Shown here piece by piece: positions 3,623 through 62,262 of a DNA stretch of 64,000 nucleotides. Location of the stretch: IMG/VR virus record IMGVR_UViG_3300028800_000057; one strand, given 5' to 3'. The DNA is from a virus (lineage: Duplodnaviria > Heunggongvirae > Uroviricota > Caudoviricetes). Position numbers and translations under genes: made by a program. The first letter of the stretch is position 1. The number at the start of each line of letters is the position of its first letter. The notes under the pieces were generated by a model that was not told the origin of the DNA, ran no database searches, and saw only the letters and a program-made list of their open reading frames with translations.

Positions 3623-3654
3623 TTGTTGAGGTTCAACCGGCTCATGCGTAATAG
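3623..3654 (+). promoter_or_regulatory. conserved promoter-like motif copy 3
   Basis: TTGTTGAG-N15-GCGTAATAG exact, 5 nt before ATG 3660. Confidence 0.6.
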
Positions 3655-5133: not shown

Positions 5134-5658
5134 CTACCACATGAGAAGATCTGATATCTCTCCAGCTTTCATCATAGCTAAGTTCTTGTTCTTGTAGCGA
5201 TAATCCCCAGTAACCTCCATAGCCCTATCAGCCCAGCGTGGGAGAACGAAGTTCTCGGCTTGCTCGATACTCTGAAACTCTATTTCTAGTAGTATCAGGC
5301 CGTCGAGGGTATCAAGAAAGGTGTCTACCTCGTACTTAGTCACCATCCTATCGGTGGTAAGCACGGTGCGGAGCTTACGCAGTGAGTACTTGCACTTGGG
5401 CCAAAGAGTATCGAATACCCACTGAGGGATCTCGGTCTCCCACTCGGGTCGTTCGAGGTCACCGTCACCCTTGACGGTCATGGTGTGGAGGATTCCGCTG
5501 CTCCGGCGCAACCTAAGTTCAGAGTCTGAGTCTAGGAGGTATCCCTGTTCGATCAGGACTGACTGGCTACCCTGAAGTTCCCCCGGAGCGAACTTCAGTC
5601 GAAACTTCCGCTCTATCTCAGTTCGAATATCTTCAGGTTCTCCGTTGGGCATGCCCAA
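5134..5658 (-). CDS. CYTH-domain protein (triphosphate tunnel metalloenzyme family)
   Basis: N-terminal EIERKF (ExExK) signature and acidic strand pattern typical of CYTH. Confidence 0.55.
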   Translation of the reverse strand: MGMPNGEPEDIRTEIERKFRLKFAPGELQGSQSVLIEQGYLLDSDSELRLRRSSGILHTMTVKGDGDLERPEWETEIPQWVFDTLWPKCKYSLRKLRTVLTTDRMVTKYEVDTFLDTLDGLILLEIEFQSIEQAENFVLPRWADRAMEVTGDYRYKNKNLAMMKAGEISDLLMW

Positions 5659-5679
5659 CGTACACCGAGTTCTCGGGTT

Positions 5680-6459
5680 TCAGATCCCGAGGGCCCGCTT
5701 GTGCTCGGGCCCTAAACCCGCTTCTTGCCCGCACCGATTGCACGAGCCCATTGTAAGTACCGCTTGGGTCAGCTCTTCATTGGTGCTGTCGACGGTCCCA
5801 ATGGGATAGCAGAATCGACTCTCACCGGCGACGACGGTCCCGTCATGGGATACCGAGGGGGTACAGAACCCGGACTTGCCCATCATCCCACGGACCCTCA
5901 AGGTCATGATCGCCGACGCAATCGACCTGGTCGAATGGGTGATGGATCTTAGGTTAAAGCTGCTTGGGGCAATACGTGGGTCAAGACCCTTAGGATCAAA
6001 CTTGGGACTCGCGGCTCGGCCGATGGTAGATAGAATGCAGAGCTTGTCTACGTAGATCACCTTCTTATGCTCGAACCTAGGTGGTTTGCGCGGATAGTAT
6101 CGCTCGTCGTTGGTGACCTGGATGAGGATGTTATCCCTCCACCATACATCGTCACGTAAGATTTGATTGCGGAGTTCCACATTGTCGAGCCAGAGCCCGT
6201 GGGTCAGGATTGTAACAATCCAATTCCGCTTGGCGACCATCTCGACCATCTCTACAATGCGAGGGTGGTCGGTGCACTCTCCGCCGGAGAGCATCATCAT
6301 CACCGGCATCTTCGCTTGAATAACCTGACACTCAACACGCTCTGTGAACTTGAGAGCCTTCTCGAAAAGTTCAATGGACATGTGCTCGCCTGCAGGGGTT
6401 GCATCCTCGAGACAGTGGCTACAGCCCATTGCGCAGTGTGAGGTTACTTTGATTAGCAT
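5680..6459 (-). CDS. radical SAM domain protein
   Basis: CAMGCSHC (Cx3Cx2C) near N-terminus and SGGECT (GGE) motif. Confidence 0.65.
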   Translation of the reverse strand: MLIKVTSHCAMGCSHCLEDATPAGEHMSIELFEKALKFTERVECQVIQAKMPVMMMLSGGECTDHPRIVEMVEMVAKRNWIVTILTHGLWLDNVELRNQILRDDVWWRDNILIQVTNDERYYPRKPPRFEHKKVIYVDKLCILSTIGRAASPKFDPKGLDPRIAPSSFNLRSITHSTRSIASAIMTLRVRGMMGKSGFCTPSVSHDGTVVAGESRFCYPIGTVDSTNEELTQAVLTMGSCNRCGQEAGLGPEHKRALGI

Positions 6460-6555
6460 CTTCGAGGATAATATCGTGGTGATGTGCCTATTGCAAGGGA
6501 TATCTGGCTTGGTTACTGGGTCAGATACTTTTAATCTTGGTGCTATATTGAGGTT

Positions 6556-7104
6556 GTGATAGGTTGTCCACCCATGCCCTCAAAGATAACGATACTCGTG
6601 ATACTTCCGGCGATTGCAACACTGATGCTGATCATTGGCTACGCTGGATCGAAGTCAATAGGAGTGGGGTCCCGTCCCGCCCCTGCTTGTCCGACTTGCC
6701 CGGTATGCCAAGACTACTCGGATGTCATGAAGACCATCAACACCTTGAGTCACCAGTTGGGGGTTGAGTCAGCTGGAAAGAAGGTCGATGAGATGGGCCA
6801 AGCCAAGTTTCAGGTTGGTCAGTATCAAAAGGTGGAGCAAGCTGAGGCTGACAAGGTAGAACTCCAGAAGTATCTGAGGAGTTGCGCCAAGGTCCCTACC
6901 GCGTGGTTCTGCTTTGATGGGCTACTTGATCGAATTGAAGTGGCAAAGGGTGCCTATTCGTATTTCCTAGTGATCAACAAGGTTACCATGCCTCAGTTGT
7001 TCGGTATCTGCAATTTCATGTGGTCAACCACCTCAATGGATCGGTGGGCTCGACACAACAACCATACCTGCAAAGAGTTCGACATTCATTACACAGAGCC
7101 CTAA
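6556..7104 (+). CDS. hypothetical membrane protein
   Basis: N-terminal hydrophobic segment ITILVILPAIATLMLIIGYAG. Confidence 0.45.
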   Translation: MIGCPPMPSKITILVILPAIATLMLIIGYAGSKSIGVGSRPAPACPTCPVCQDYSDVMKTINTLSHQLGVESAGKKVDEMGQAKFQVGQYQKVEQAEADKVELQKYLRSCAKVPTAWFCFDGLLDRIEVAKGAYSYFLVINKVTMPQLFGICNFMWSTTSMDRWARHNNHTCKEFDIHYTEP

Positions 7105-7366
7105 CTTATTGATGCGTACATCTTGGGTATGGCAGAGCTTAAGAGTAGCATACCCCCGCCGGTTGAAGCAGTTCGAGGCTTGTACATCAACCCAAAGATC
7201 TCACCCCCGAAGCCTGTGAGGATCATTCCGCAGGTGGCACCGATTGGAGTCAACAAGGCCCCACCGAAGAAGAGTGGTCGCCCCCGACGCTTCAATGCCA
7301 ACTTCAGTTGACGTCTTAGAGATCCCCCGGTACACTAGCCCCACTTTCAATCTGGATTCATTCTAT

Positions 7367-8736: not shown

Positions 8737-9184
8737 ACCCCTTAGAAAACCAGCGATGGGGTTGAACAGCAATCTATCCCGAGATGGGGTTGAGTACTAT
8801 GTTCAGACTGAGGATCTCCCCAGTAAGTCCAAGATCACGACCCAAGTGTTCGTCGACGGTGGGGTGGTTGTCTATACTGATCACTACGACTACAGCGGGC
8901 ACCTGGGAAGTACTGACCTGAGCAGTTGCCTCATCAAGGTAATGCGTGCGTGCCACCAAAAGACCGTCGTGGGGGTTCAGAAGGGAACACTCGAGTCCGC
9001 CCCAACCAGACAATCAAAGATTTGCCCTGCCCCTGCTCCCCCTAAAGCTAAACCTAGAAGCCCCTCTGATGTTTGGGACTCCTTGGTGAAGGAAGCGCAC
9101 CGGAGAAACATGAGACTTCGAATGTCGACCAGACCGCCTCCGGCCTGGGACACCATCGTTGAAAACCTGAGAAGATCAGGTTGA
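8729..9184 (+). CDS. hypothetical protein
   Basis: ORF. Confidence 0.45.
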   Translation: MPEPLRKPAMGLNSNLSRDGVEYYVQTEDLPSKSKITTQVFVDGGVVVYTDHYDYSGHLGSTDLSSCLIKVMRACHQKTVVGVQKGTLESAPTRQSKICPAPAPPKAKPRSPSDVWDSLVKEAHRRNMRLRMSTRPPPAWDTIVENLRRSG

Positions 9185-9209
9185 GAAACCTACTCCTCAC
9201 GCGTAATAG
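9178..9209 (+). promoter_or_regulatory. conserved promoter-like motif copy 4
   Basis: aGGTTGAG-N15-GCGTAATAG. Confidence 0.55.
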
Positions 9210-9898: not shown

Positions 9899-10203
9899 GC
9901 GGAGAAGCCAGAAAAGCCTACTTTACCCATGACCCCCAGTTCGATACTTGGTTGGAGAAAACCCTAACAGATGAGGGTACTTACGAGGACAGCGAAGGGT
10001 CCCTCACCGAGTGGTATAACGGGGTCCATTGGAATACTAGGATTCGCATCAAGGGGGACGGTCCTCATATCACCGATGACTTGGTGGCCGAGGGTTGTAG
10101 CGAGGACCGCGCGCTTGCGCGCCAGGAAGCGGAACGTCTTCTGAGGGTGAAGCTTCGGTCCCTCTTGGAAAATGCTGAATCTTTTGGGTTCAGTGATTGT
10201 TGA
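9895..10203 (+). CDS. small protein, tandem paralog with dsRBD-like C-terminal motif
   Basis: AEGCSEDRALARQEAERLL. Confidence 0.45.
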   Translation: MSGEARKAYFTHDPQFDTWLEKTLTDEGTYEDSEGSLTEWYNGVHWNTRIRIKGDGPHITDDLVAEGCSEDRALARQEAERLLRVKLRSLLENAESFGFSDC

Positions 10204-10228
10204 GATCCGCGCCCCTCGCGCGTAATAG
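10197..10228 (+). promoter_or_regulatory. conserved promoter-like motif copy 5
   Basis: TTGTTGAG-N15-GCGTAATAG, gagtATG leader. Confidence 0.6.
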
Positions 10229-10784: not shown

Positions 10785-11336
10785 TCATGCTCTGAAGTCA
10801 ATCTTCTTGACCAGGGTCCGGATGCGCGCCACAACCTTAGCAGGCATCGGGTCGAATAGCCATGACTTAGCAAACTCGTAGCCCCGGTCAATGAACAAGC
10901 CCTTGCGCTTCAGAAGTTCGCATGCCCAATCGTAGTAATTTGCATCATCAGGTCTAGCTTCCGTAGCCAAGGCGGCCGTTTGCGGACGCGTTCCGGCGAT
11001 GATATCATTCAGATGCCAGCGCTCCCACAGGTCACAGAGTTCGGACACCTCAGGGATGTGACCCCAGATCTCTCGGATTGTTGAGACGCACTGACACGAG
11101 GCGATGTACCCTTTTCGATTCCATACATCACCCACGATGGACAGGGTCAGGATCTTGTTCCGACCTTCTTTTAGGTCAACAGAGCGGCTACCCTTCGTAG
11201 GCTTGTAGGTGAGCTTGACCTTCAGAGTACCTCGAACATCCTCAGGTACTATCTCACTAGCAAAGTGATCAGGTAGGCTGATGGTGACTTCATAGTCTTC
11301 TGATGATTTTGTAGCCATGCCCTGTATTACGTACAA
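10785..11336 (-). CDS. hypothetical protein, paralog of 8074..8736 (WGHIPEVSELCDLWERW)
   Basis: shared motif. Confidence 0.55.
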   Translation of the reverse strand: MYVIQGMATKSSEDYEVTISLPDHFASEIVPEDVRGTLKVKLTYKPTKGSRSVDLKEGRNKILTLSIVGDVWNRKGYIASCQCVSTIREIWGHIPEVSELCDLWERWHLNDIIAGTRPQTAALATEARPDDANYYDWACELLKRKGLFIDRGYEFAKSWLFDPMPAKVVARIRTLVKKIDFRA

Positions 11337-11359
11337 TGGGCACTGATCTCAACAAGAAT

Positions 11360-11662: not shown

Positions 11663-11694
11663 TTGTTGAGATTCCTGCCCGTCATGCGTAATAG
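11663..11694 (+). promoter_or_regulatory. conserved promoter-like motif copy 6
   Basis: TTGTTGAG-N15-GCGTAATAG exact. Confidence 0.6.
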
Positions 11695-13505: not shown

Positions 13506-13733
13506 ATGTCATGTTCCAACTGTGGTAGTGAGTATTGTGATGGCGAGAAGTGCGATGAGAACGGGGGCCAAGATCCATTTCCCGACCCAACTATTGACGA
13601 CGATGTTGAAGAGGGGGGTGACGATGGTGTAGAGGGTCTTGATGACGATGAAGATCTTGATGATGACGAAGATCTTGATGATGACGAAGATCTTGATGAT
13701 GACGAAGATCTTGATGATGACGACGAGGAGTGA
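13506..13733 (+). CDS. highly acidic repeat protein (DEDLDDD x4) with N-terminal Cys cluster
   Basis: tandem 21-bp coding repeats; about 50% D/E. Confidence 0.5.
   Translation: MSCSNCGSEYCDGEKCDENGGQDPFPDPTIDDDVEEGGDDGVEGLDDDEDLDDDEDLDDDEDLDDDEDLDDDDEE
13641..13722 (+). repeat. tandem 21-bp repeat GATGACGAAGATCTTGATGAT x about 4 (coding, inside acidic protein gene)
   Basis: direct inspection. Confidence 0.7.
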
Positions 13734-14393: not shown

Positions 14394-14723
14394 ATGGATC
14401 AAGAATCAGCTATCCAGGTCTTCCTAGCTAGGTACAAGAATCCATTCATCCTAAATGTCTTGAAATCACACATAAGGACCCCAGCGGGCCGCAACAAGCT
14501 AGCTGCAAGTATGATTCAGCCAGTCAAACTGGCGGTTAGTTACTTGGAGTCAACAAGGAAATCCTTGAGTGACATCGAGTACCCTATGCAGTCGCGCGTG
14601 GATGAGTACCAGCGGTTCATAGCTGCAGTTCCTGAGGATGAGCAGAAGGCTGACCCTTTCCCAGAACTGGAGACTCTTGTCAATAAGCTTGCAGCCCTCA
14701 TCGAAAAGCGTAAATTGGGTTGA
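14394..14723 (+). CDS. hypothetical protein
   Basis: ORF. Confidence 0.45.
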   Translation: MDQESAIQVFLARYKNPFILNVLKSHIRTPAGRNKLAASMIQPVKLAVSYLESTRKSLSDIEYPMQSRVDEYQRFIAAVPEDEQKADPFPELETLVNKLAALIEKRKLG

Positions 14724-14748
14724 GATCCTGAGTATTCATGCGTAATAG
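14717..14748 (+). promoter_or_regulatory. conserved promoter-like motif copy 7
   Basis: gGGTTGAG-N15-GCGTAATAG. Confidence 0.55.
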
Positions 14749-15601: not shown

Positions 15602-15632
15602 TTGTAATATTGGTTGAATTTTCAGATTCTTG

Positions 15633-15664
15633 TTGAGTTATGGCGGGATCCTGCGTAATACATG
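15633..15664 (+). promoter_or_regulatory. conserved promoter-like motif copy 8 (TTGTTGAG-N15-GCGTAATAc) with no long ORF downstream
   Basis: motif; only a 38-codon ORF then an 11-bp-stem hairpin follow. Confidence 0.5.
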
Positions 15665-24355: not shown

Positions 24356-24361
24356 ACTCGC

Positions 24362-24393
24362 TATTACGCGCTGGCGTAATGAATCTCAACAAG
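24362..24393 (-). promoter_or_regulatory. conserved promoter-like motif copy 9 on minus strand (TTGTTGAG-N15-GCGTAATAG, cgagtATG leader)
   Basis: reverse complement exact, drives SWIM gene. Confidence 0.6.
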
Positions 24394-30715: not shown

Positions 30716-31093
30716 TAAGGTTACCCGCTGCCTAATCTGTGAGACAATTCGTTGGAAGACCGAGAGCAAGGACAGGGGTAGGCGCGTGGTACTCTTCCAA
30801 CCCCGCCGCTCCACTGAGTGGGATCGGGTAATGCCTCCTTGCCTCAAGACTTAGACCAGAAGTGCTTCTTTGCAGGTCGGACTCCCCTACTTCTAAGGTG
30901 GAAGTCGTTGGTGTCGGTGTCCCAAGGTCTCCTACGTCTACGTCTGAGGCTAATTAGTACGAGGCCAACTGCAACTGCAACTACGGCTAGAATTATCGAT
31001 AGTGCCACGAAACTGTATTACGCTTCAGCACACCTGATCTCAACGATAAATTGACTTTCCTGTGGGCCGACTCTCTCGGTGTAATGGTTTTCA

Positions 31094-32383
31094 ATGGAAA
31101 GCCAGATCGTACTAGGGGATTGCAGAGAGGTCCTCAAGTCCCAACCTGACAACGTCTTCGATTCAGTGGTGACAGACCCCCCCTCAGGGATCAAGTTCCT
31201 TGGGCTCGAGTGGGATACTTTCAAACCGACCGAGGATGAGGAGGGGGTAGAGGGGCGCGCTGAGCTGCTGGCCTTCCAGAACTTCCTAGCTGTATCCTTT
31301 CGAGAGGTCTACCGAGTCCTCAAGCCTGGTGGGTTCGGATTGGTCTGGGCGCTCCCGCGCAGTAGCCATCATACGAAGATGGCCCTAGAGCGCTGCAGGT
31401 TCGAGATTAGGGACACCCTGTACCATATCTTTGGCCAAGGGTACAAGAAAGGGACTGATGTCAGCAAGGAGCTCGAGACTCTAGGGGACATTGAGTTGGC
31501 GGAGAGGTGGTTGGGCTACCACACAGGATTGAAGCCAGCTGTCGAGGAGTGGGTGCTCGTCCGTAAACCACTCGAAGGTACGGTCGTCGACAACATCCGA
31601 AAGTATGGGGCTGGAGCTCTAAATATTGATTCTTCCAGAGTTTTCACTGATTGGGATGAACCTGACCGACCCGATACTTGGAAGAATAGCGGTCACACCT
31701 CGAAACCAGAAGCGGTAAAGGTTGCAGCTCCGCCGGGGAACGGAATCAATTGCCACCCGCTCGGAAGGTGGCCCTCTAATCTTATCCTATCCCACTGTCC
31801 TGATTGCAAGCGTATCGGGACCAAGGTCATCAAAGGAGACCCGCGCGGTAACTGCAAGGGGACCCGTCCAGGGGGTTTCTATGCTCCAGGATCAGACTCA
31901 GGTGATGGGAAGCCAAACGCCTATGTCTACGGAGACCAGGAGCTACCGATCTACGAGTGCGTTGAGGGTTGCCCAGTGGGTATCTTGGATAGAAATGGGA
32001 GCAACTCTCGGTACTTCAAGACATTTGATCCAGACCCAGAAGCCAACTTCATCTACCAAGCGAAGCCGTCACCTTCGGAGAAGAATGCTGACTTGGATGA
32101 GGGCCTCGTCAATGAACACAAGACTGTTAAGTCGTTGAAGTTAATGTCTTATCTGGTCCAACTAGTAACTCCCCAAGGCGGGAGAGTACTTGACCCATTC
32201 GCGGGATCCGGTACTACTTTGGTTGCGGCTGCAGAGCTAGACTTCGGGTTTCTGGGTATCGAGAAGGACCCTAAGACTTGGCCTGTTATTCAAAGTCGGG
32301 TGGCCAATGTCCTCAAGCGTATTGAGCTGGCGCGAGAGAAGCTAGCTGGGTTCAATGCAATGTTCGAACTGGAGAGTGAGTGA
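31094..32383 (+). CDS. DNA methyltransferase (N6A/N4C beta-class) with variant motif IV DPPS, C-terminal FELESE
   Basis: FDSVVTDPPSG ... DPFAGSGTT (motif I). Confidence 0.75.
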   Translation: MESQIVLGDCREVLKSQPDNVFDSVVTDPPSGIKFLGLEWDTFKPTEDEEGVEGRAELLAFQNFLAVSFREVYRVLKPGGFGLVWALPRSSHHTKMALERCRFEIRDTLYHIFGQGYKKGTDVSKELETLGDIELAERWLGYHTGLKPAVEEWVLVRKPLEGTVVDNIRKYGAGALNIDSSRVFTDWDEPDRPDTWKNSGHTSKPEAVKVAAPPGNGINCHPLGRWPSNLILSHCPDCKRIGTKVIKGDPRGNCKGTRPGGFYAPGSDSGDGKPNAYVYGDQELPIYECVEGCPVGILDRNGSNSRYFKTFDPDPEANFIYQAKPSPSEKNADLDEGLVNEHKTVKSLKLMSYLVQLVTPQGGRVLDPFAGSGTTLVAAAELDFGFLGIEKDPKTWPVIQSRVANVLKRIELAREKLAGFNAMFELESE

Positions 32384-48421: not shown

Positions 48422-49342
48422 TCAGAGTTTCCACATGACCGTTGTATTTGGGCCTACCCCAATATGGTTATCTAAGTTGTGCAGGTGATCCATTCTCTCC
48501 AGTGAGAGCTTGAACTTCTTAGGGATAGCTTCGAACCCATAGTAGGAGCCGGCCATTGCTCCGGCGATAGCAGCTGTCGTGTCTGTGTCCCCACCCGCTC
48601 TGATGGCGGCCATGACAGCATCCTCGTATGAATCAGTGAGCATGAAGGCGGCTGCCGCTGAGGGTACCGTTTGGGTTACATGAGACTTGGTTCCAAAGAC
48701 ACTGAATGCCTCCGGTAGGGAAAGTCGGTCTTTGGTCTTTCCGAGTATGATGAGCTTGTCTTTGATCTTGGAGTTGCTCAGAAAATCCAAGGTAGCTTCA
48801 ATAAGATCAAACTTTGGTACCCCCTGCCAGATGAAAGCAACCATCAAGGCAACTGCTGCTGAACCCTCTCGAGCTTCCACTGACTTATGGGTGATCCTAG
48901 ACTCCATCCTTGCAAACTCGGATACCGTCAGCGGATCATCATGGTAAAATGCTCCCATGGGGGCCGCCCGCATTGCGGTACCATTGCCTTCGGCGCCATC
49001 AATCCCACTATCTGTCCAGCGAAAACCCTCCTTCAAGCGTTGAAGTGAGGCTTTGGTGGTCTTACCCATCCCCCGAGTATCCCCGGCGATGTACCAGTGG
49101 AGATACCGGTTGGCGACATCGCGCGGGTAAAAACCCCCACAGATGTACAGGGATTCTGTAAGCATCTTCGCCATCATAGTATCATCAGTCCATTGGCCAG
49201 GGGTGAGCTGATGATACTCACTTGGCAAGTAGTCTCCCCTCCAACTTAGGAGCATAGGATCGCTCGCAAGCCGTGTTTCGAAGGGCATTCCAAGAGCATC
49301 TGCCACAGCCTCACCTACTAGAGGTGCCGGATCACTAACCAT
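48422..49342 (-). CDS. ADP-ribosylglycohydrolase (ARH/DraG family)
   Basis: VADALGMPFE ... QWTDDTMM ... GGDTDTTAAIAGA. Confidence 0.8.
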   Translation of the reverse strand: MVSDPAPLVGEAVADALGMPFETRLASDPMLLSWRGDYLPSEYHQLTPGQWTDDTMMAKMLTESLYICGGFYPRDVANRYLHWYIAGDTRGMGKTTKASLQRLKEGFRWTDSGIDGAEGNGTAMRAAPMGAFYHDDPLTVSEFARMESRITHKSVEAREGSAAVALMVAFIWQGVPKFDLIEATLDFLSNSKIKDKLIILGKTKDRLSLPEAFSVFGTKSHVTQTVPSAAAAFMLTDSYEDAVMAAIRAGGDTDTTAAIAGAMAGSYYGFEAIPKKFKLSLERMDHLHNLDNHIGVGPNTTVMWKL

Positions 49343-49480: not shown

Positions 49481-51118
49481 ATGCTAGAAATGGAGGCCAC
49501 CGTGGCCAAGAATAATATCGTCGGTTTGAACCCGAATGCGAGCAATTATGCTGGTGGGGATGCGTATGCTATGGCGCCGGAGAATGCCCTGGCACAACTA
49601 GCTGTAACTGGTTGTTTTAACAGTACCTTCTATACAACTGCTGAGTCACAGGCAGAGCAGGTTCTCGACCTAGTCGGGAAGTCTGATCCTGAGTTCGTGG
49701 CTAAGCTAGCGGTTTATGCCCATACGACTGGGTACATGAAGGACATGCCGGCGGCCCTCCTGGCCAACTTAGCTGTTCGTAACCCTGAGCTCTGCGTGAA
49801 GGTCTTCCCGCGCGTAGTCAGCAACGGTAAGATGTTGCGCAACTTTGCTCAGATCATTCGGTCTGGGAAGTTTGGTAAGAGGAACGCTTCCTCGCACCGG
49901 CTGCGAAAGGTCATTGCCCAGTGGTTCGACTCTAGGACTGACGACCAAATATTCTTCAACTCGGTCGGTAACAACCCGACCTTGGGTGACGTGGTGAAGG
50001 TGGCTCGGGTGCGCCCGACGTCTAGGACCAGGTCTGCTCTCTATGCTCACCTGGCGGGCAAGGATAAGGGTTTCTTCGACGGTGAGGACTTCGTTACGGC
50101 TGAGTCTCTCCCGGCGCTAGTAGCGGCTTATGAAGCCTTCCGGGTGTCCCCGGTGGGTGAGGTTCCTAATGCACCCTTCGAGATGCTATTGGGACTTAAG
50201 TTGAGTCTTGATGATTGGAAGGCGGTAGCCGCCAAGGCAACTTGGCCTCAGACCTTCAAGAATCTCAATACGTTCGCTCGTCACGGAGTTCTTGCGGACC
50301 CTGAGATGGTCAACTTGATTGCAGCCAAACTACATAACAAGGATCTGATCGAAAAGGCTCACGTCTTTCCATACCAGATCATGATGACCTACAAGGCGGT
50401 TACGGATCGGAGCATCACCTTCCGTGGTTCAAAGCCCAATGATGACGACTTTGAACAGATGCCGAACAAGATCATTGTAGCTCTTGAGGAAGCTCTTGAA
50501 CTAGCTACAATGAACGTTCCTGCCTTCGATGGGCAGAACGTAGTCATCTGTGTCGACGTGTCTGGGTCGATGTCCACAAGCCCTGTAACTGGTTCTCGAA
50601 AGGGTTCCACTACAAAGGTCATGAGCATCGATGTGGGTTCGTTGATTGGTTCGTCCATCCTCAGAAGGAACCCGCGGGCTAGACTCATCGCCTTCGAGGG
50701 TCGAGTAGTCCCGGTCAAGGTGCATGCTGGCAACAGTGTCATGCAGAATACCAAGATCTTAGCCTCCGTTGGTGGTGGTTCAACTGATTGTGCTAAACCT
50801 TTGGCTTTGCTCAATGCAGAGGCCGCCAAGGTTGACGTGGTCATCTTCGTCTCGGATTACGAGTCTTGGACTGGTAATCATGGGATCACAGGGGCGACTC
50901 AAATGCAAGGGCAATGGGACTTACTGAAGTGTAGGAACCCCAATGCCAAGTTGGTCTGCTTGGATCTCGCACCTCACAACACGAATCAGGTTGTAAGCCG
51001 ATCTGATACTTTTGGTATCGGTGGGTTCTCTGATCAGGTTTTCAGCATGATCAGTGATTTTGTCACTGGTTCCGGCAAGAACCAGTGGGTAGACATCATC
51101 AATCAAGTTGAACTCTGA
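49481..51118 (+). CDS. Ro60/Rsr-like TROVE-domain protein with C-terminal vWA (MIDAS DVSGSM)
   Basis: NYAGGDAYAM..LAQLAVTGCFNSTFYT ... KVFPRVVSNGKMLRNF TROVE-like; VVICVDVSGSMS vWA. Confidence 0.7.
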   Translation: MLEMEATVAKNNIVGLNPNASNYAGGDAYAMAPENALAQLAVTGCFNSTFYTTAESQAEQVLDLVGKSDPEFVAKLAVYAHTTGYMKDMPAALLANLAVRNPELCVKVFPRVVSNGKMLRNFAQIIRSGKFGKRNASSHRLRKVIAQWFDSRTDDQIFFNSVGNNPTLGDVVKVARVRPTSRTRSALYAHLAGKDKGFFDGEDFVTAESLPALVAAYEAFRVSPVGEVPNAPFEMLLGLKLSLDDWKAVAAKATWPQTFKNLNTFARHGVLADPEMVNLIAAKLHNKDLIEKAHVFPYQIMMTYKAVTDRSITFRGSKPNDDDFEQMPNKIIVALEEALELATMNVPAFDGQNVVICVDVSGSMSTSPVTGSRKGSTTKVMSIDVGSLIGSSILRRNPRARLIAFEGRVVPVKVHAGNSVMQNTKILASVGGGSTDCAKPLALLNAEAAKVDVVIFVSDYESWTGNHGITGATQMQGQWDLLKCRNPNAKLVCLDLAPHNTNQVVSRSDTFGIGGFSDQVFSMISDFVTGSGKNQWVDIINQVEL

Positions 51119-51958: not shown

Positions 51959-53797
51959 CTATCGAAGTGGGCCATCCCCTGCAAGACCGCTCGGGATACC
52001 TGCCACACTAATGGTAGCATCCACTGTCCCTGAGGAGATCAGGATGCGCGAGATATTGTTGCTACCCTTGTTGTTCACATACATGTGGTCCGCACCGTCC
52101 CAGGCAACCTCGTCTGGAGTTGTCCCGACACTGATAGTTGAGTCAACTGTCCCTGAAGAGATCTCTATGAGTGATACAGTTCCGTCACCGGAATTAGTGA
52201 CATACATGTGGTCCGCCCCATCCCACGCTATTTTATTCGGGCTACTCCCTACGAAGATCATAGCATCGACATTGTTACTCGTCAGACTGATTCGGATTAC
52301 TTGATTGGATAACGAGCTAACCACATACATGTGGTCCGCACCGTCCCAAGCAACTCCCTTAAAGTCGTTTAATAGAGGGATAGTCAGGTTGACTGTTGCG
52401 GTTGTAGTGTCCACGCTAGACACTGTTCCATCGCTACTATTGACCGCAAACATGTGGGACACACCGTCCCAAGCGATAGCACGAGGGGAGTTCCCAAGTG
52501 TAATTGCGGATCCAAGTAGAGCGCCTGTTGCGATCTGGATCCTATGAGCAGTGTTCCCACCACGACCAACAACATACATGTATGAGCCACCATCCCATTC
52601 AATTCCGAATGGGTTAGTTTCAGCACTGCTTATGGTAGTAGTACTCAGATCTGCTATTGCTATCCTGGTAACTGTGTTGTCGTTCTGACTAGCGACATAC
52701 ATGTAGAGTCCACCGTCCCATGCAATATCAACCGGTTCACTACCAACACTAATGAGATCACTTACTACTCCAGAAGAGATTAGAATCCTCCTAGCTACGT
52801 TTGTACTATCCATGGATACGTACATGTAGAGGCCGCCATCCCAAGCAACCCCAGTTGGAAATCCTGACCCCAGGGAGATGGTCGCATCGACAGCTCCGCT
52901 CGAGATCAGGATTCTAGATACAGTGTTGGTGCCATTGTTAGTGACATACATGTGGGCCCCTCCGTCCCACGCAACCCTATATGGATTAGAACCAACAGGG
53001 ATGATCAGATCAACAACTCCTGTTGAGATCAGGATCCTGTAGACTGAACCATCCTGGTCCACTGTGTACATGTGGGCCCCACCATCCCACGCGATATCAA
53101 TTGGAGATATCCCAACAGGGATGACTAAGTCAATAACTCCAGTAGAAGCAATGATTCTAGAGACCGTCCCTTGCCCAAAGTTTGCTGTGTAGATGTGACC
53201 AGACCCGTCTCGTGCAACGCCCCATGAATTAGGGGCATTCATCAGATGTACTGACGAATAACTAGGCCAAGTATCTACTGATACTTCCAGAATCTTGTTC
53301 GTGTTTGGGTTAGTATTGTTGGCAGTTACCCACATATTGAAGCTGCCATCCCAAGCCACCTTGTTGGGAACACCGTCACTACTACTGAAGTTGATGTTAG
53401 AGTCTACAACCCCCGAGACAATTGCAATTCGAGTAATCGTGTTTTCATTGTCAACCACGTACACGAAGCTAGTATCCCTAGCTAGCGCAATCGGTTGAGA
53501 TCCAATGTTAGTAGTACTATCTAGTGCAAGACTGGATATCCTAACTCTTTGAACTGAATCCCCATCAACCTCAGCCAAGTACATATAGGATCCACCATCC
53601 CATACTATCGCTTGGGGGTTGTCACCAGCGGTAACGGTGCTGTCAATAGCCCCGGTAGCTATGTTGACGCGCGGTACTAGATTTGCTGAGCCAAGAGGGA
53701 CCCACATGTGCCCCCCAATAAGTGGGCGCTTGCCTAAGGCCCACTCGGGGGCTCGTGCAATGGTTCTCATTAGAGTGCCCTCACGTACTCGAACCAA
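51959..53797 (-). CDS. YVTN/NHL-type beta-propeller repeat protein (about 14 x AWDG..HMYV repeats), likely receptor-binding/tail-associated
   Basis: regular about 40-aa repeats. Confidence 0.6.
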   Translation of the reverse strand: MVRVREGTLMRTIARAPEWALGKRPLIGGHMWVPLGSANLVPRVNIATGAIDSTVTAGDNPQAIVWDGGSYMYLAEVDGDSVQRVRISSLALDSTTNIGSQPIALARDTSFVYVVDNENTITRIAIVSGVVDSNINFSSSDGVPNKVAWDGSFNMWVTANNTNPNTNKILEVSVDTWPSYSSVHLMNAPNSWGVARDGSGHIYTANFGQGTVSRIIASTGVIDLVIPVGISPIDIAWDGGAHMYTVDQDGSVYRILISTGVVDLIIPVGSNPYRVAWDGGAHMYVTNNGTNTVSRILISSGAVDATISLGSGFPTGVAWDGGLYMYVSMDSTNVARRILISSGVVSDLISVGSEPVDIAWDGGLYMYVASQNDNTVTRIAIADLSTTTISSAETNPFGIEWDGGSYMYVVGRGGNTAHRIQIATGALLGSAITLGNSPRAIAWDGVSHMFAVNSSDGTVSSVDTTTATVNLTIPLLNDFKGVAWDGADHMYVVSSLSNQVIRISLTSNNVDAMIFVGSSPNKIAWDGADHMYVTNSGDGTVSLIEISSGTVDSTISVGTTPDEVAWDGADHMYVNNKGSNNISRILISSGTVDATISVAGIPSGLAGDGPLR

Positions 53798-55483: not shown

Positions 55484-56134
55484 TTAGAAATGTTTGCGCC
55501 CGTTTTTCTGGTGATGATGAGGTTTAGCCTCTCGCTTGTGTTGTCTAGACTTGGCCAGAATGTTCTTCCGAACCGTCATCATGTCGAGGGTTGATATCGC
55601 CCCCTGAATGGTCTTACCGTCCAAGTGATCCATCTCGTGTTGAATCGCTTTGGCAAAGAAGTCCTCAGCCTCGATTTCAGTGGGGAATCCCTCACCATCT
55701 AAGTACTTCACCTTGATGGTCTCGTAGCGAGGCATCTTTGCGCTACCACCGGGGAAGGACAGACAGCCCTCCCGGCTCATGACCGGTTCTTTTCCTTCGG
55801 GTAGGACCAACTCTGGGTTGATGAAGATATGAGGGTCAGAACGTTCCAAGTCCTCTGGCCACCGGACGTCGACCACGAACATTCGGATGCTCTTCCCAAC
55901 CTGGGGGGCCGCTAGACCTACCCCACCCTCTAACATCATGGTCAAGAGCATGTCTCGCGCCAGCTGCTTGATCTCCTCAGTGACCTCTTCTACGGGAACA
56001 CAGACCTGATTGAGGATATCGCTAGGGTAGTAGACCATCTTCAGCGGGCTAATTCCGGTGATCTCCTCAGATCCTTTAGCAGATTCCTGTTCTAGAGCAT
56101 TTGAGTAGGCAATGGCTATGTGATCTCGTATCAT
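55484..56134 (-). CDS. def: peptide deformylase
   Basis: GVGLAAPQVG, EGCLSFPG, QHEMDHLDG. Confidence 0.85.
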   Translation of the reverse strand: MIRDHIAIAYSNALEQESAKGSEEITGISPLKMVYYPSDILNQVCVPVEEVTEEIKQLARDMLLTMMLEGGVGLAAPQVGKSIRMFVVDVRWPEDLERSDPHIFINPELVLPEGKEPVMSREGCLSFPGGSAKMPRYETIKVKYLDGEGFPTEIEAEDFFAKAIQHEMDHLDGKTIQGAISTLDMMTVRKNILAKSRQHKREAKPHHHQKNGRKHF

Positions 56135-56727
56135 TTGTCACCAAACTGTTCGTAAGCACGTGACGCTACCGCGCCTTTGGCATTATCACCTTGATAATGC
56201 CCCTTGTAAAGATCAACTTCACCACGAATGGTGAAAAATCGTATTTGACAGATTCTCATCCCTGGGTATAACCTGATAGGATAGGTGGCTAGTACTTCGA
56301 GTGTGTACTGACCATAGAAACCAGGGTCCCCGAGACCGGCGGTTACATGAACCAGCACAAATAGCCGTCCTATGCTTGACTTACCGTCAATTGCTGGGAC
56401 ATACTTGTTGGTTCCGACACTCTCTCTAGTGTGCATCAGGTATCCGATGCCAGGTTTGAGTATGAACCCCTCAGGACCCATCTTGAAGGAGTTCGTTGGG
56501 TTGTCCACCTTGGGGTCCAAGTAACTACCGCTCTTCCAGACCTTATTGTACACTGTGATTCCATCGCCAAGTGTGAGGTCATAGGAGGCTGGGTTTAATT
56601 GAGAAACCTCGAACGGACTTATGTCGATCTCACCGAGATGAGTCTCCATTTCAATCTCTTTCCCCGACAGAATACCTTGTTGCATAGGATTCAAGTACAC
56701 CGATTTAATGGGGTGTGTAACCGGCAT
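56131..56727 (-). CDS. dcd: dCTP deaminase
   Basis: IDGKSSIGRLFVLVHVTAGLGDPGF..TLEV...P..L.PGMRICQI. Confidence 0.8.
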   Translation of the reverse strand: MPVTHPIKSVYLNPMQQGILSGKEIEMETHLGEIDISPFEVSQLNPASYDLTLGDGITVYNKVWKSGSYLDPKVDNPTNSFKMGPEGFILKPGIGYLMHTRESVGTNKYVPAIDGKSSIGRLFVLVHVTAGLGDPGFYGQYTLEVLATYPIRLYPGMRICQIRFFTIRGEVDLYKGHYQGDNAKGAVASRAYEQFGDK

Positions 56728-57994: not shown

Positions 57995-58735
57995 CTACCT
58001 CGTACCCCTCAACATGTAGAAGCTCGTAGCGTAAGTCCAACAGATGGACGGATTGATACTGGTTCCAATTTGAGCTCCAACTTCATTCGCCCTATCGAAG
58101 AACTTCTTGGCCTCAGTGGGCCGATTCAGTACCAATAGTTCAATAGCTTTAGACCAGAAGTTCAAAATTAGTGTGTCAAAAGACTTGTCTTCGTCTCTTG
58201 GCTCATCGTTGTGCATGTTAGATATGTAGAACAGAACTCCATCATCGCTTCGATCCGTCATCCACCTCATCCAGCCTATGGATAGGGCCTCAAAGGTCTT
58301 CCGAGACCAACGTCTCCCCTTTGTTTTCGTAGGGATTAGATCGCTGCGCACGACATCTAAGCAGTAGTTCAAGCAGAATATCAACAGCCTTGTTTCGAAC
58401 TTGTCGGGGCTGACAGGAAGTAACCTCAAAGTCTTTTCAGAATAAGTCGTAACCCTCTCTCTATTCGGTGTATCAGAAAAAGCCGCGTCAAAAACAGCCT
58501 TCTGTGCAGCCATCTCTGAGATGATAGTACTAGTATCCTCAGAGTCATCAGGCAGATCAGGATCGTTGCTTAGACTTAGTGGCTCAGATGGTGAGAGATG
58601 TTTGCGTACCCCTCCTCTAGAGGTAGACCTCTTGCGACTACTATTAACCATTGATTCGTTCACAGCCTTATTTGAAGTTGACAACAACAAGTCCACTGAG
58701 ATAATACACCGAGTCCGACATAGGTAGAGAATCAC
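57995..58735 (-). CDS. hypothetical protein
   Basis: ORF. Confidence 0.45.
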   Translation of the reverse strand: MILYLCRTRCIISVDLLLSTSNKAVNESMVNSSRKRSTSRGGVRKHLSPSEPLSLSNDPDLPDDSEDTSTIISEMAAQKAVFDAAFSDTPNRERVTTYSEKTLRLLPVSPDKFETRLLIFCLNYCLDVVRSDLIPTKTKGRRWSRKTFEALSIGWMRWMTDRSDDGVLFYISNMHNDEPRDEDKSFDTLILNFWSKAIELLVLNRPTEAKKFFDRANEVGAQIGTSINPSICWTYATSFYMLRGTR

Positions 58736-58758
58736 ACTAGTAGGTAGAGTTTGGTGCT

Positions 58759-59889
58759 TTGACCTTAAAAAGGGAAACTGTGGCTAATTTAGTAGGAAAT
58801 TTACCTGATGATTTCATACCCTCAAACTTTACTGTGTTATATGACACCTACTCACCATTTGTTACGAGGTTAGTCACACGGTACAATCGTGTTCAAGCTA
58901 ATTTCGAGGACCTTCTCCAGCACGTATGGATGAAGTTGGTCGAAGTTGACGTCATTCAGAAGTACAATGACTCAAGCTCCCTCCCTAAGAAGATGACCGC
59001 GCTCGAAGCGTGTGCTTATCTAGATATAGAGTGGGGATCACTGAAGCGCGCCGTTCACCGTCACCTTATTGGTGAGGATCGCCATCTCGACCGCATTCGA
59101 AGTGTGTCAAAAGACACTAAGGGCAAACTCCTTCGACGGGATCACGGCACCTGCCACTGTTGCGGTAGGAACATGGTTGAGTTTGGCAAGGCTTTCAACC
59201 GGTACAAGAGTGATCCGTTGAGGACTAACTGGTTCAAGAGAATGCTGGCATCGCTTGGCCTGACCTCGAAGCAGAAGACCTTCTGGTACGCCGTGAAGGA
59301 CCCTAGCGTTGCCTTCCGAAGGGGTATGGATGAAGCCGACCGGTACAAGACCACTTGCTTCATCTGCTTGCGCCAGATCAGTCCTCCAGTGGTACGTTCC
59401 AAGTCTGAGTGGGCCCCAGTACCCATTGAGGGTACGTGGGCTTCAAAGAAGGCGCTTTACTCTCGAGAGGATATTGAACGGTTCCGGTTGGAGCGGGAAG
59501 CTAGAGGCAAGCGTAATAACAAGGCCATCTGTCCTAGGAAGATCAAGTCAAAACCGTTCTTCAAACTGTATCTTGCTCGCGCGGTTCACAACATCTACGC
59601 CAACTGGTGTCGGACTCGGTCTCGACGGTACAAGGAGCACTTCCCAGGGACAGACCCTGAGACGGGTCGGTCATGGGAAGACACCCTCGTGTCAAACACC
59701 TCGACTCAAGACACACTGTCCGAGTTGCATGAGGCTGTAAAGATCCTTGTGGATAACAACTCGGATGTGATGACGAAAACCCACGAAGACGTCATCATCT
59801 TGCTAGCGAAGGGGTGCTCCCCTGAAGAGATTGTTGTGCGTCTTGGGCTGCCCAAACGTGGACTCAAGACCCTCTCACTCGGGACTTGA
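58759..59889 (+). CDS. sigma-factor-like protein (region 2- and region 4-like segments with inserted Cys-rich segment)
   Basis: FEDLLQHVWMKLVE (region 2-like); DVIILLAKGCSPEEIVVRLGL (region 4 HTH-like). Confidence 0.5.
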   Translation: MTLKRETVANLVGNLPDDFIPSNFTVLYDTYSPFVTRLVTRYNRVQANFEDLLQHVWMKLVEVDVIQKYNDSSSLPKKMTALEACAYLDIEWGSLKRAVHRHLIGEDRHLDRIRSVSKDTKGKLLRRDHGTCHCCGRNMVEFGKAFNRYKSDPLRTNWFKRMLASLGLTSKQKTFWYAVKDPSVAFRRGMDEADRYKTTCFICLRQISPPVVRSKSEWAPVPIEGTWASKKALYSREDIERFRLEREARGKRNNKAICPRKIKSKPFFKLYLARAVHNIYANWCRTRSRRYKEHFPGTDPETGRSWEDTLVSNTSTQDTLSELHEAVKILVDNNSDVMTKTHEDVIILLAKGCSPEEIVVRLGLPKRGLKTLSLGT

Positions 59890-60680
59890 GAATCCTCTTG
59901 TTCAGGGGGTCTGATGTGACAGCTCGAACTCGTCTCATCAAAGCCTCCCTAGAACTCAAGCGCCTAGTATTCAGCTCGTTGCCTTGGGGCCTTCGAGTTG
60001 CGCACTTGCTCCACCAGATCCGGTTCGCGTCCGACGCCTCCGTCTTTGGTCAATCCATCTACGGGTTATTTCTCCTCTACGGAGTTGAGGGGATGCCCAC
60101 CCCACCTATGGTACCTAAAAGTATCAAGGATATCAACAGATTGCACGGGTATGGTCGAGATTTCGGCCAAAAGGCGTTAGGCCTTGCCCTTCGATTGTTC
60201 AAATCCGACTCGATGAAGGTCGAGCGGTCTCAAGAGACTCTATCTCTTGTATTCATGAAGCTTTTCTCTGACTCAACCCTAGAGAGTAAATTCAAGGGGA
60301 AGCCACTCGCCTACGCTGAGAATTATGCATACTTAGCTGTAAGGAGTGAGGCAGTCAGTTTGATGCGTAAAGAAAGGCTACGCGCCCACAGTGACATTGA
60401 AGATCTCGTCACCGAGCCAGCTTCATGGGATAGCCTAGGCGACATGATCCCGAGGGCTGAGCAAGAAGCTCTACTGAAGGAGCTAGAGCGCGCTGTCAAC
60501 CCGGAGACGTTCCCTGATATCGTGGAGTACTTCCAGCTCCTGCTAGAAGGTCACAATACAGAGGAGATTGCGCGGGAGAGGTTACTTCCTAGCCTACAAG
60601 ACAAGGCAATGACCCAGCAAGGGTTGAGGCGGTATGAAGGGGTGATCAAGAGGGTTCTTGAGCGCCACTTTGGTGTATAG
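59886..60680 (+). CDS. second sigma-factor-like protein
   Basis: ETLSLVFMKLF...ENYAYLAVRSEAVSLMRKER; FPDIVEYFQLLLEGHNTEEIARE. Confidence 0.45.
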   Translation: MRILLFRGSDVTARTRLIKASLELKRLVFSSLPWGLRVAHLLHQIRFASDASVFGQSIYGLFLLYGVEGMPTPPMVPKSIKDINRLHGYGRDFGQKALGLALRLFKSDSMKVERSQETLSLVFMKLFSDSTLESKFKGKPLAYAENYAYLAVRSEAVSLMRKERLRAHSDIEDLVTEPASWDSLGDMIPRAEQEALLKELERAVNPETFPDIVEYFQLLLEGHNTEEIARERLLPSLQDKAMTQQGLRRYEGVIKRVLERHFGV

Positions 60681-60686
60681 CCGGAC

Positions 60687-62024
60687 GTGACTCAACCTGT
60701 AGACGTCATCCTCCACGGTCAGTGTTTGGATGTTCTCCGTACTTACCCAGACAACTTCTTTGATAGTGTCGTAACAGATCCGCCTTACGGGCTCGGTGGG
60801 CGTGACCCAACGCCGGAAGAGATCTTAGCTTACCTGAATGGGGCGGTCCTTGTAACAGGGGAGTTCATGAACAAGGATTGGGACTTACCCTCAGTCCTGG
60901 TCTGGAAGGAATGCCTTAGGGTCGTCAAGCCCGGTGGGTTCTTGTTCTCGTTCGCCGGGACTCGGACGATTGACATCCTCTCAATTGGAATCCGGATCGC
61001 TGGGTTCACGAATCGTGACACTATCCCGGTTGAGATGGGGCCGCCAATCCTTCGGTGGCTTCGTGCTCAAGGGATGCCCAAGAATGTTGATGTCGGTAAG
61101 GAGTTCAAGAAGGCGGGCCTCCTCGACCTAGCGGTTCTATGGAAAGAGTTCGGAACGGCTCTTAAACCTTACTGGGAACCAATACTCGTCTTCCGCAAAC
61201 CTATTGCTGAACAGACCCTGCTCAAGCAGCTTGAAGTCACTGGGACTGGGGTCATCAACATCGAGGCTTCTAGGGTCAAGCACTCATCCCTAGCAGACTT
61301 CGCCAAGCACAAGGCGGGGGTAGACGCCATCAAGGCGCGCGGGGGCAAGATGGGTAACTCGTGGAAGAACTCTTCTGACCTGTCTGGAGCCAATGATGTC
61401 TCGACTTCGGGTCGACTCCCTCCGAACGTCATCTTCGTTCATTCGGACTTATGCCGGAAGGTTGGTAGTCAGGTAGTGGCTATGCCGCCCATCAATCGCT
61501 TTGATGATGGAGCTAAGCCATTTGGTGGCGGTGCCGGTCACAAGTACACAACAGTCCATCGAGAGGATGAGACCATTGATACTTGGGAGTGTCACCCCTC
61601 GTGTCCGATCTACCATCTCAATCAACAGCACAAGGTTGAGGCTGGTGGGGCTTCGAAGTACTTCCTGAATGTTGACCCTGATTCCCTATTCTTCTACGTC
61701 CCCAAACCCAATCTCCGAGAGAAGAGTGCCGGGCTTGAGGAGGGGGAAGAGAACGAGCACAATACGGTCAAACCTGTACGGCTCATGGAGTACTTGGTAA
61801 CTATGGCGACCCCTACCAACGGGACTGTCCTAGACCTTTATTGTGGATCAGGTACGACTTGCGTAGCTGCTATTAATAAGGGATTCCACTTCGTAGGCAT
61901 CGAGAAGGAAGAGCCATCGGTCAAGACCGCTCGGTTGAGAGTCCTGGCTGCTCAAGCGGATCGTCGGGAGTTTGAGGACCGAGAGGTAATGGCTGGGGCA
62001 ATGTATGAGCTTGAATCAGAGTGA
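60687..62024 (+). CDS. DNA methyltransferase (N6A/N4C beta-class, canonical DPPY), C-terminal YELESE
   Basis: FDSVVTDPPYGLGG ... DLYCGSGTT. Confidence 0.85.
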   Translation: MTQPVDVILHGQCLDVLRTYPDNFFDSVVTDPPYGLGGRDPTPEEILAYLNGAVLVTGEFMNKDWDLPSVLVWKECLRVVKPGGFLFSFAGTRTIDILSIGIRIAGFTNRDTIPVEMGPPILRWLRAQGMPKNVDVGKEFKKAGLLDLAVLWKEFGTALKPYWEPILVFRKPIAEQTLLKQLEVTGTGVINIEASRVKHSSLADFAKHKAGVDAIKARGGKMGNSWKNSSDLSGANDVSTSGRLPPNVIFVHSDLCRKVGSQVVAMPPINRFDDGAKPFGGGAGHKYTTVHREDETIDTWECHPSCPIYHLNQQHKVEAGGASKYFLNVDPDSLFFYVPKPNLREKSAGLEEGEENEHNTVKPVRLMEYLVTMATPTNGTVLDLYCGSGTTCVAAINKGFHFVGIEKEEPSVKTARLRVLAAQADRREFEDREVMAGAMYELESE

Positions 62025-62262
62025 GTTTCTGGGCTCGAGTTAGATTCTTGATCTTCAGCTCTCGCTTTAGAGCTGAGCTCTTATCCTCCACTGGCTCTCG
62101 GTAGGTTAGCTTCCATGGTCTTCCCGCTCGAGTAAACTTGGCTCCGGTTCCATTGTTGTGGGCCGTCAGTCGCTTCTCAAGGTCGTTCGTGATCCCGGTG
62201 TAAAGCTTCCCAGTCACCTGACTCCTGATAATGTATACAACCCAGATGGAACCGTTAGACAT
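61921..62262 (-). CDS. GIY-YIG domain protein (YhbQ/UPF0213-like)
   Basis: VYIIRSQVTGKLYTGITNDLEKRLTAHNNGTGAKFTRAGRPWKLTY. Confidence 0.7.
   Translation of the reverse strand: MSNGSIWVVYIIRSQVTGKLYTGITNDLEKRLTAHNNGTGAKFTRAGRPWKLTYREPVEDKSSALKRELKIKNLTRAQKLTLIQAHTLPQPLPLGPQTPDDPLEQPGLSTERS

Follow-up and report, generated by a model that had tools for sequence, protein, structure and literature searches.

Do the two tandem open reading frames (ORFs) that lie side by side on the plus strand of an uncultured Caudoviricetes genome encode sigma factors, and, if so, what is the cysteine-rich segment that interrupts the first of them? These frames, called here ORF1 (58759-59889, 376 residues from a TTG in its maximal form) and ORF2 (59886-60680, 264 residues from a TTG in its maximal form), belong to IMG/VR record IMGVR_UViG_3300028800_000057, of which a stretch of 64,000 nucleotides was analysed (the window). 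A preliminary description, made from the DNA letters, had read region-2-like and region-4-like segments in both and had recommended a search with sigma-70 and extracytoplasmic function (ECF) profiles. That search supports both proteins as sigma-70-family members of the ECF type, and the resemblance first noted from the sequence is not due to chance: Sigma70_r2 and TIGR02937 carry it for ORF1, and a family profile carries it for ORF2. The comparison further indicates that region 2 of ORF1 is split by a 190-residue module that appears to sit in, or to replace, the loop with which ECF sigma factors read the -10 element.

Against the Pfam Sigma70_r2 profile, intact ORF1 matched positions 1-35 of 71 over residues 27-61 (E 1.5e-5; 25.1 bits for a cutoff of 24). 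Residues 73-262 were then removed computationally from 24 members of the ORF1 family. Once spliced, ORF1 matched the whole model (1-71/71; E 3.5e-8, 33.6 bits for the same cutoff of 24) and Sigma70_r2 was matched by 23 of the 24 family members. ORF1 also matched the NCBIfam sigma70-ECF model TIGR02937 (E 1.2e-7) and, over residues 268-370, the sigma factor family phrog_1740 (E 7e-4). When aligned with hhalign to E. coli sigmaE, whose sequence was entered by hand, the spliced profile was colinear with residues 20-171, from region 2 to region 4.2 (E 1.8e-4, probability 48%). The N-terminal half of sigma2 (regions 2.1-2.2; residues 24-72 in the 376-residue numbering, 58828-58974, +) accounts for Sigma70_r2 positions 1-35 and forms helices at residues 24-42 and 46-62 in the AlphaFold2 (AF2) model, where the confidence score (pLDDT) exceeds 88. 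The C-terminal half (regions 2.3/2.4, 'FKLYLARAVHNIYANWCRTRSRRYKE'; 59545-59637, +) completes the match and is the most conserved segment of the family, holding 11 of its 16 invariant columns. The sigma2 fold is canonical in the structural model. A C-terminal, region-4-like helix-turn-helix (HTH; residues 335-376, 59761-59886, +) aligns to sigmaE region 4.2, and the homolog P0079 gave matches to Sigma70_ECF (E 1e-3) and Sigma70_r4 (E 8e-3), neither of which reached the cutoff. At 90% identity the ORF1 family falls into 81 clusters, nearly all of them full length. Its conserved parts are the two N-terminal helices, a long segment in the middle and the near-invariant 'FKLYLARAVHNIYANWCRTRxRRYKE'. 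Taken together, the profile and fold evidence supports ORF1 as a predicted sigma-70-family protein of the ECF type, with a sigma2 domain and a sigma4-like HTH.

The excised segment (residues 73-262, 190 residues; 58975-59544, +) maps to loop L3 of sigma2, and it is its excision that restores the full Sigma70_r2 match. In the hhalign comparison with the hand-entered sigmaE sequence, the splice junction aligns between F64 and R65. Since loop L3 of sigmaE spans residues 63-72 (Lin et al. 2019, PMC6372665), the insert would lie in L3 or take its place. In the portion of that article that discusses Campagne et al., L3 is presented as forming the pocket that receives the flipped -10 'master nucleotide', and as a modular determinant of ECF specificity (PMC6372665).

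The insert is probably a nested structure, in which a winged HTH of MerR/excisionase type encloses an HNH domain resembling that of ZRANB3. The N-terminal part of the probable winged HTH covers residues 75-112 (58981-59094, +). It is followed by the predicted nuclease-dead HNH/Cys4 zinc domain (residues 114-213; 59098-59397, +) and by the C-terminal part of the probable winged HTH (residues 214-250; 59398-59508, +), which consists of a wing strand and the helix 'REDIERF', modelled by AF2 as a strand at 233-235 and a helix at 236-248 with pLDDT of about 96. The motif HGTCHCCG, previously described as a cysteine-rich inserted segment, is indeed present at residues 129-136 of ORF1, but it forms part of the HNH domain and thus of the larger module interrupting region 2. 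A ZAS-like anti-sigma zinc motif was considered for these residues and rejected, as the cysteines belong to the CxxC...CxxC site of the HNH domain. The winged HTH was called from fold and pattern, because a profile of the insert flanks with the HNH domain removed gave no Pfam or PDB sequence match; the MerR_1 profile reached at best E 0.044, in 2/24 members, and HTH_17 reached E 0.036-0.12 over 13 residues.

The beta-beta-alpha-metal fold of HNH domains is present in the insert. At the column of the ZRANB3 catalytic histidine ('VDHIKP'), 23 of the 36 aligned members have lysine (13) or arginine (10) and none has histidine, and the column of the second HNH histidine ('CHKE') is occupied in the ORF1 family by L, A, V or W. 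The zinc cysteines C132, C200 and C203 are kept in 35/36 members and C135 in 30/36. Because both catalytic histidines are replaced while the Cys4 site is kept, the domain is predicted to bind zinc and to be nuclease-dead.

Natural variants bear on the origin of this arrangement. Three homologs (P0079, P0080 and P0081) lack the HNH but have the two halves of sigma2 together with an uninterrupted HTH-like segment, and another sigma homolog (P0030) carries two HNH copies. A free-standing protein of 186 residues (P0257; 1103-1663 of locus L016) corresponds to the whole module and is catalytically dead too; its gene adjoins an FHA-domain gene in an unrelated context, with no sigma parts nearby. The existence of HNH-less, double-HNH and free-standing forms supports a nested origin of the insert. 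A search of 5.8 billion proteins with an insert-only profile returned the sigma family, P0257 and one weak partial match (P0258), and it revealed the module in no other host protein family. An intein was also considered for the insert and rejected, given the lack of any Hint or intein Pfam family at E <= 1, the dead nuclease and the conservation of the module. By inspection, the insert boundaries are variable and no conserved His-Asn precedes the C-terminal junction.

ORF2 has a simpler layout, with an N-terminal extension (about residues 1-75), sigma2 (~78-158) and sigma4 (~180-252). The extension, of about 75 residues, is conserved and has no recognisable family. The sequence of ORF2 by itself reached TIGR02937 at E 0.018. 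An exhaustive profile search with ORF2 gathered 219 representative proteins (50% identity) at E <= 1e-3. From an ORF2-anchored alignment of 77 members (A4), all of them full-length matches at E <~1e-10 with the N-terminal extension included, a profile was built that ORF2 matches at E 4.7e-68. Against the PDB, this profile retrieved M. tuberculosis SigH (2e-8), a SigH chimera, S. coelicolor SigR (7e-7), SigL (3e-5), R. sphaeroides RpoE (2e-4), SigE and others; the top 10 PDB matches are all ECF sigma factors, aligned from region 2.1 into region 4. Taken singly, 10/77 of the A4 members matched Sigma70_r2, 5/77 Sigma70_r4_2 and 2/77 Sigma70_r4. The two families also match each other: hhalign of the ORF2 family with the spliced ORF1 family gave 95.8% probability and E 7.6e-9 over 148 colinear columns, whereas the same comparison was near noise when the insert was left in. 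Judged from these profiles, ORF2 is a predicted divergent ECF-type sigma factor, recognisable at the family level only, and ORF1 and ORF2 are distant paralogs. Members of the ORF2 family vary in length: a gene at 5635-7128 of locus L006 encodes 497 residues, of which residues 19-265 are the sigma-like part, and ends in a C-terminal extension of about 230 residues, and several other members are 370-457 residues long.

The pair is conserved as a unit. In the four relatives examined in detail (L005-L008), whose ORF1 homologs are 33-52% identical, a member of the ORF2 family is the next gene after the ORF1 homolog (4/4; E 1e-64 to 1e-69), and this adjacency is kept in all 8 loci examined, which represent 5 distinct genomes including that of the window. 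The contigs concerned are of ~290-510 kb and apparently derive from huge phages. The start of ORF1 is most likely the GTG at 58780 (58780-59889, +; 369 residues), because the gene calls on identical contigs and the N-termini of the homologs ('MANLV') agree on it. That of ORF2 is most likely the GTG at 59916 (59916-60680, +; 254 residues), which is preceded by AGGGGG, because its N-terminal ~60 residues are kept at the protein level in homologs of 47-85% identity and the gap between the ORF1 and ORF2 homologs measures 24-41 nt in four relatives. The overlap of the maximal frames then disappears. For the same reasons, the 195-residue version of ORF2 called on some public records (P0091, 100% identical, on a 443 kb contig) looks truncated. 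No further paralog of either protein was found in the window.

As first described, the two co-oriented frames directly precede a methyltransferase gene. It encodes an N6/N4 DNA methyltransferase of 445 residues (60687-62024, +; PF01555 E 8e-28, phrog_67 E 4e-56) and starts 6 nt past the ORF2 stop. A methyltransferase also lies downstream of the pair in 3/4 relatives (L005, L006 and L008), once with a PhoH gene between. On the other side, peptide deformylase and dCTP deaminase genes lie upstream of the pair in 4/4 relatives; in the window they occupy 55484-56727 (-), and every relative examined keeps them in synteny with the sigma pair. Nearer to ORF1, a divergently transcribed neighbour of 218 residues (57995-58651, -), taken from the gene calls on public contigs, gave no family match in Pfam, PHROG or NCBIfam, and a minus-strand gene of 182-226 residues occupies its position in L005, L007 and L008. 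Between this neighbour and ORF1 lies a near-consensus sigma70-type promoter (58678-58705, +; TTGACA-N16-GATAAT with an extended -10 TG, 11/12 matches), 74 nt upstream of the ORF1 start. In 6/6 loci the ORF1 homolog is preceded, at a distance of 69-108 nt, by a similar element, TTGAC(A/T/C) followed at 16-18 nt by a -10 starting with TA. Because of this promoter and its counterparts in relatives, the sigma pair and the methyltransferase probably form an early operon transcribed by the host holoenzyme, and the adjacency of the methyltransferase would then probably reflect an operon or temporal co-expression rather than functional coupling. A direct repeat, TAGGTAGAG, with copies 20 nt apart at 58721-58729 and 58741-58749, lies in the 5' untranslated region, between the promoter and the ORF1 start, and could be an operator or autoregulatory site. 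At the 3' end of the methyltransferase gene, a gene for a GIY-YIG domain protein of 113 residues (61921-62262, -) overlaps it by ~104 nt in antisense, and this overlap is called likewise on identical public contigs.

Which promoters might such sigma factors read? The preliminary description had offered the pair as candidate readers of the conserved TTGTTGAG/GCGTAATAG motif. These two elements are the halves of one bipartite motif, TTGTTGAG-N15-GCGTAATAG, with the core GTTGAG-N16-CGTAATA. It occurs in 10 copies at <=3 mismatches, against 0.05 expected, all within 978-31046: seven on the plus strand (978-1009, 3623-3654, 9178-9209, 10197-10228, 11663-11694, 14717-14748 and 15630-15661) and three on the minus strand (11324-11355, 24361-24392 and 31015-31046). 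In 10/10 copies a start codon (9 ATG, 1 GTG) follows after 5-6 nt. Because this spacing leaves no room for a Shine-Dalgarno sequence, the motif probably represents a promoter class for leaderless mRNAs. ECF promoters have a 'CGT(A/C)' -10 and spacers of 14-17 bp (PMC5758882). The CGTA -10 and 16-nt spacer of the motif fit this geometry, unlike that of sigma70, and its -35 is without the usual 'AAC'. Because of this resemblance, a phage ECF-type sigma factor is a plausible candidate reader of the motif. The window contained no second over-represented promoter-like word, only coding repeats. No copy was present in the loci fetched from relatives, which cover the sigma region only, and IMG/VR gave 6 single matches, a number judged (not computed) to be about that of chance for 17 specified bases.

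In the model that we propose, domain architecture, paralogy, loss of the catalytic residues and synteny are results of the tools used, and we infer what the insert does, which promoters are targeted, when the genes are expressed and that the proteins bind RNA polymerase (RNAP). Once infection has occurred, the operon of ORF1, ORF2 and the methyltransferase would be transcribed by the host holoenzyme. As expected from their family membership, each phage sigma factor would then bind the host core RNAP through sigma2 and sigma4, and would redirect the enzyme to phage middle or late promoter classes. ORF2 would act as a plain sigma2-sigma4 protein with a conserved extension of ~75 residues at its N-terminus. 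Loop L3 of ORF1 would carry an autonomous module of 190 residues, a probable winged HTH enclosing the catalytically dead HNH, which most likely would add or replace contacts with DNA at the -10 element or immediately before it; the module may instead be a docking or regulatory surface, in either case without nuclease action. That both proteins act as sigma factors for the host RNAP is, in our judgement, probable. A direct part of the ORF1 module in the recognition of promoter DNA is proposed only tentatively. Equally speculative is a new mode of promoter recognition, in which the -10 loop of ORF1 is replaced by a DNA-binding module made of a winged HTH and a former HNH zinc finger; in the same doubtful reading, the holoenzyme would read duplex or structured -10/spacer DNA instead of, or besides, a flipped base. 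ORF1 with its module might drive the GTTGAG-N16-CGTAATA promoters, apparently for leaderless mRNAs.

Several observations weigh against this model. The TIGR02937 cutoff of 42.9 bits is missed by both ORF1 (31.5) and ORF2 (14.7), so that by the NCBIfam cutoff neither protein is a strict member of the ECF family, and it is fold and profile that place both in the sigma-70 superfamily. Region 4 of ORF1 is matched weakly or by generic HTH families (GerE, HTH_7, HTH_23). The mapping to L3 used a sigmaE sequence entered by hand, and canonical reading of the -10 element could be lost through an insertion in L3. For ORF2, the sigma assignment goes by transitivity at the family level: ORF2 alone or with its close family (A1) gave nothing significant against Pfam, PHROGs or PDB sequences, and Foldseek with its AF2 model (pLDDT 77.5) found nothing in the PDB better than E ~1.4, ECF sigma factors appearing at noise level. 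No cognate promoter is tied to either sigma factor, the bipartite motif included. The analysis covered 64 kb of a contig of ~443 kb, and a phage RNAP or more sigma factors may be encoded outside the window.

The lack of significant Pfam, PHROG, PDB and Foldseek matches for ORF2 would be expected if it were an unrelated helical protein whose sigma matches reflect profile drift. We consider this very unlikely, since the A4 members match over their full length, N-terminal extension included, ORF2 itself scores far inside the A4 profile, the ten best PDB matches are all ECF sigma factors, colinear across sigma2 into sigma4, and the paralogy to ORF1 is an independent line of evidence. A different alternative leaves ORF2 as the sole working sigma factor and makes ORF1 a sigma-derived protein that is no longer a specificity factor, but a decoy, an inhibitor or an auxiliary transcription factor acting on core RNAP or DNA, with the winged HTH-HNH module as its real DNA-binding part. 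The interruption of L3, which ECF sigma factors require for -10 recognition, and the short, weakly sigma-like region 4 agree with it, as does the free-standing copy of the module, which implies that the module can function without a sigma factor. However, nothing in the family is more invariant than the helix of regions 2.3/2.4 with its aromatic 'YANW', which suggests that a melting or -10 function was retained; moreover, sigma2 refolds canonically in the model and the full-length architecture is kept across ~80 clusters. This alternative is therefore held to be unlikely.

We regard as quite unlikely, too, that ORF1 and ORF2 form an obligate pair, a co-sigma or heteromer with shared promoters, in the manner of two-subunit sigma systems. 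The strict adjacency in the 8 loci, even at 33-45% identity, and the short conserved intergenic gap, which suggests co-expression, would be in agreement with such a pair; nevertheless, each protein has sigma2 and a sigma4-like domain, unlike SigO/RsoA or T4 gp55/gp33, and the family of ORF2, with 219 representatives at 50% identity, seems to be wider than that of ORF1, with 81 clusters at 90%. As for the insert, it could be a selfish element, either an intein or an HNH homing endonuclease, with no role in sigma function, given that HNH domains are typical of phage homing endonucleases and that the HNH copy number varies (0, 1 or 2) among homologs. This explanation is highly improbable in view of the lack of a Hint or intein match, the loss of the catalytic histidines in 36/36 aligned members while the Cys4 site and the module surface are conserved, the maintenance of the reading frame across 33-92% identity, and a free-standing homolog that is catalytically dead as well.

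Our preferred reading, in which both proteins are sigma factors, can be compared with known systems. With the ECF (group 4) sigma factors, such as E. coli sigmaE, M. tuberculosis SigH and SigL and S. coelicolor SigR, ORF1 and ORF2 share the sigma2 plus sigma4 layout, a short linker, the absence of regions 1.1 and 3, and the profile and fold matches. They differ in being very divergent, below the NCBIfam cutoff and phage-encoded, with no adjacent anti-sigma factor recognised, and in carrying the 190-residue module in L3 (ORF1) or the 75-residue N-terminal extension (ORF2). Large phages that lack their own RNAP use sigma factors such as SPO1 gp28 and gp33/34 and T4 gp55. Unlike T4 gp55, both ORF1 and ORF2 retain a sigma4-like HTH, and the sigma2 and sigma4 functions are not divided as in SigO-RsoA or T4 gp55/gp33, each ORF being colinear with both. 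The HNH domain shares with that of ZRANB3 (PDB 5mkw) and that of Cap5 the beta-beta-alpha-metal fold, a helical insertion and the CxxC...CxxC zinc site. By contrast with these, it has lost both catalytic/metal-binding histidines (replaced by K/R and by L/A/V), for which reason nuclease activity is not expected, and it is embedded in a transcription factor. Unlike MerR or AlpA-excisionase (HTH_17) proteins, the probable winged HTH of ORF1 is split by the HNH domain and is itself inserted in sigma2. Jumbo phages without their own RNAP encode sigma factors, including 'group 2' sigma factors (PMC7824862), and huge phages encoding sigma70 homologs have been noted (PMC7162821). Phage-encoded sigma factors in large phages are thus already known, and at that level ORF1 and ORF2 belong among them. 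Our literature search returned no description of any HNH or HTH module within sigma region 2, of a nested module of DNA-binding type that splits sigma2 in L3, of a domesticated dead HNH inside a sigma2 insert, or of a conserved pairing with a second divergent sigma paralog.

Gene content and contig size suggest that the source is an uncultured huge phage. Homologs of both proteins were found on metagenome records of 90-512 kb, and tblastn of the two proteins against 50,697 deposited phage genomes gave no match. The accessory genes of the window are of phage type: a P22 antirepressor-like N-domain, a Ro60/TROVE protein, an ADP-ribosylglycohydrolase, two DNA methylases, a peptide deformylase and a dCTP deaminase. 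The Ro60/TROVE-vWA homolog lies at 49481-51118 (+; PF25045 E 7e-16, TROVE E 2e-6, phrog_850 E 4e-36), the ADP-ribosylglycohydrolase at 48422-49342 (-; E 2e-66) and the second N6/N4 DNA methylase at 31094-32383 (+). A beta-propeller-like protein of 612 residues (51959-53797, -) has Vgb_lyase and WD40-like matches, and its blades carry a DNA-level repeat, ACATACATGTGG..CC.CC.TCCCA, which recurs at multiples of 123 nt over 52077-52944. At 13653-13725 lies a tandem repeat of 18 nt, GAAGATCTTGATGATGAC, whose 16-nt core is matched 4 times with a divergent copy just upstream; in one plus-strand frame it reads as an acidic EDLDDD repeat.

Sigma factors are commonly viewed as adjusting their -10 specificity by minor sequence differences in loop L3. 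In ORF1 this loop holds an entire module of nucleic-acid-binding type, which is kept in a clade of phage-like contigs that measure ~290-510 kb. Should ORF1 work as a sigma factor, it would widen the known ways to programme RNAP, and its natural scaffold could be used to engineer orthogonal sigma/promoter pairs. The insert moreover shows clearly how an HNH nuclease was domesticated to a non-catalytic zinc module, a path that its variants document. Both genes are 'hypothetical' on most records, and ORF2 is often shortened to 195 residues; recognising the sigma pair opens a way into the transcription programme of these huge phages, whose clade is uncultured.

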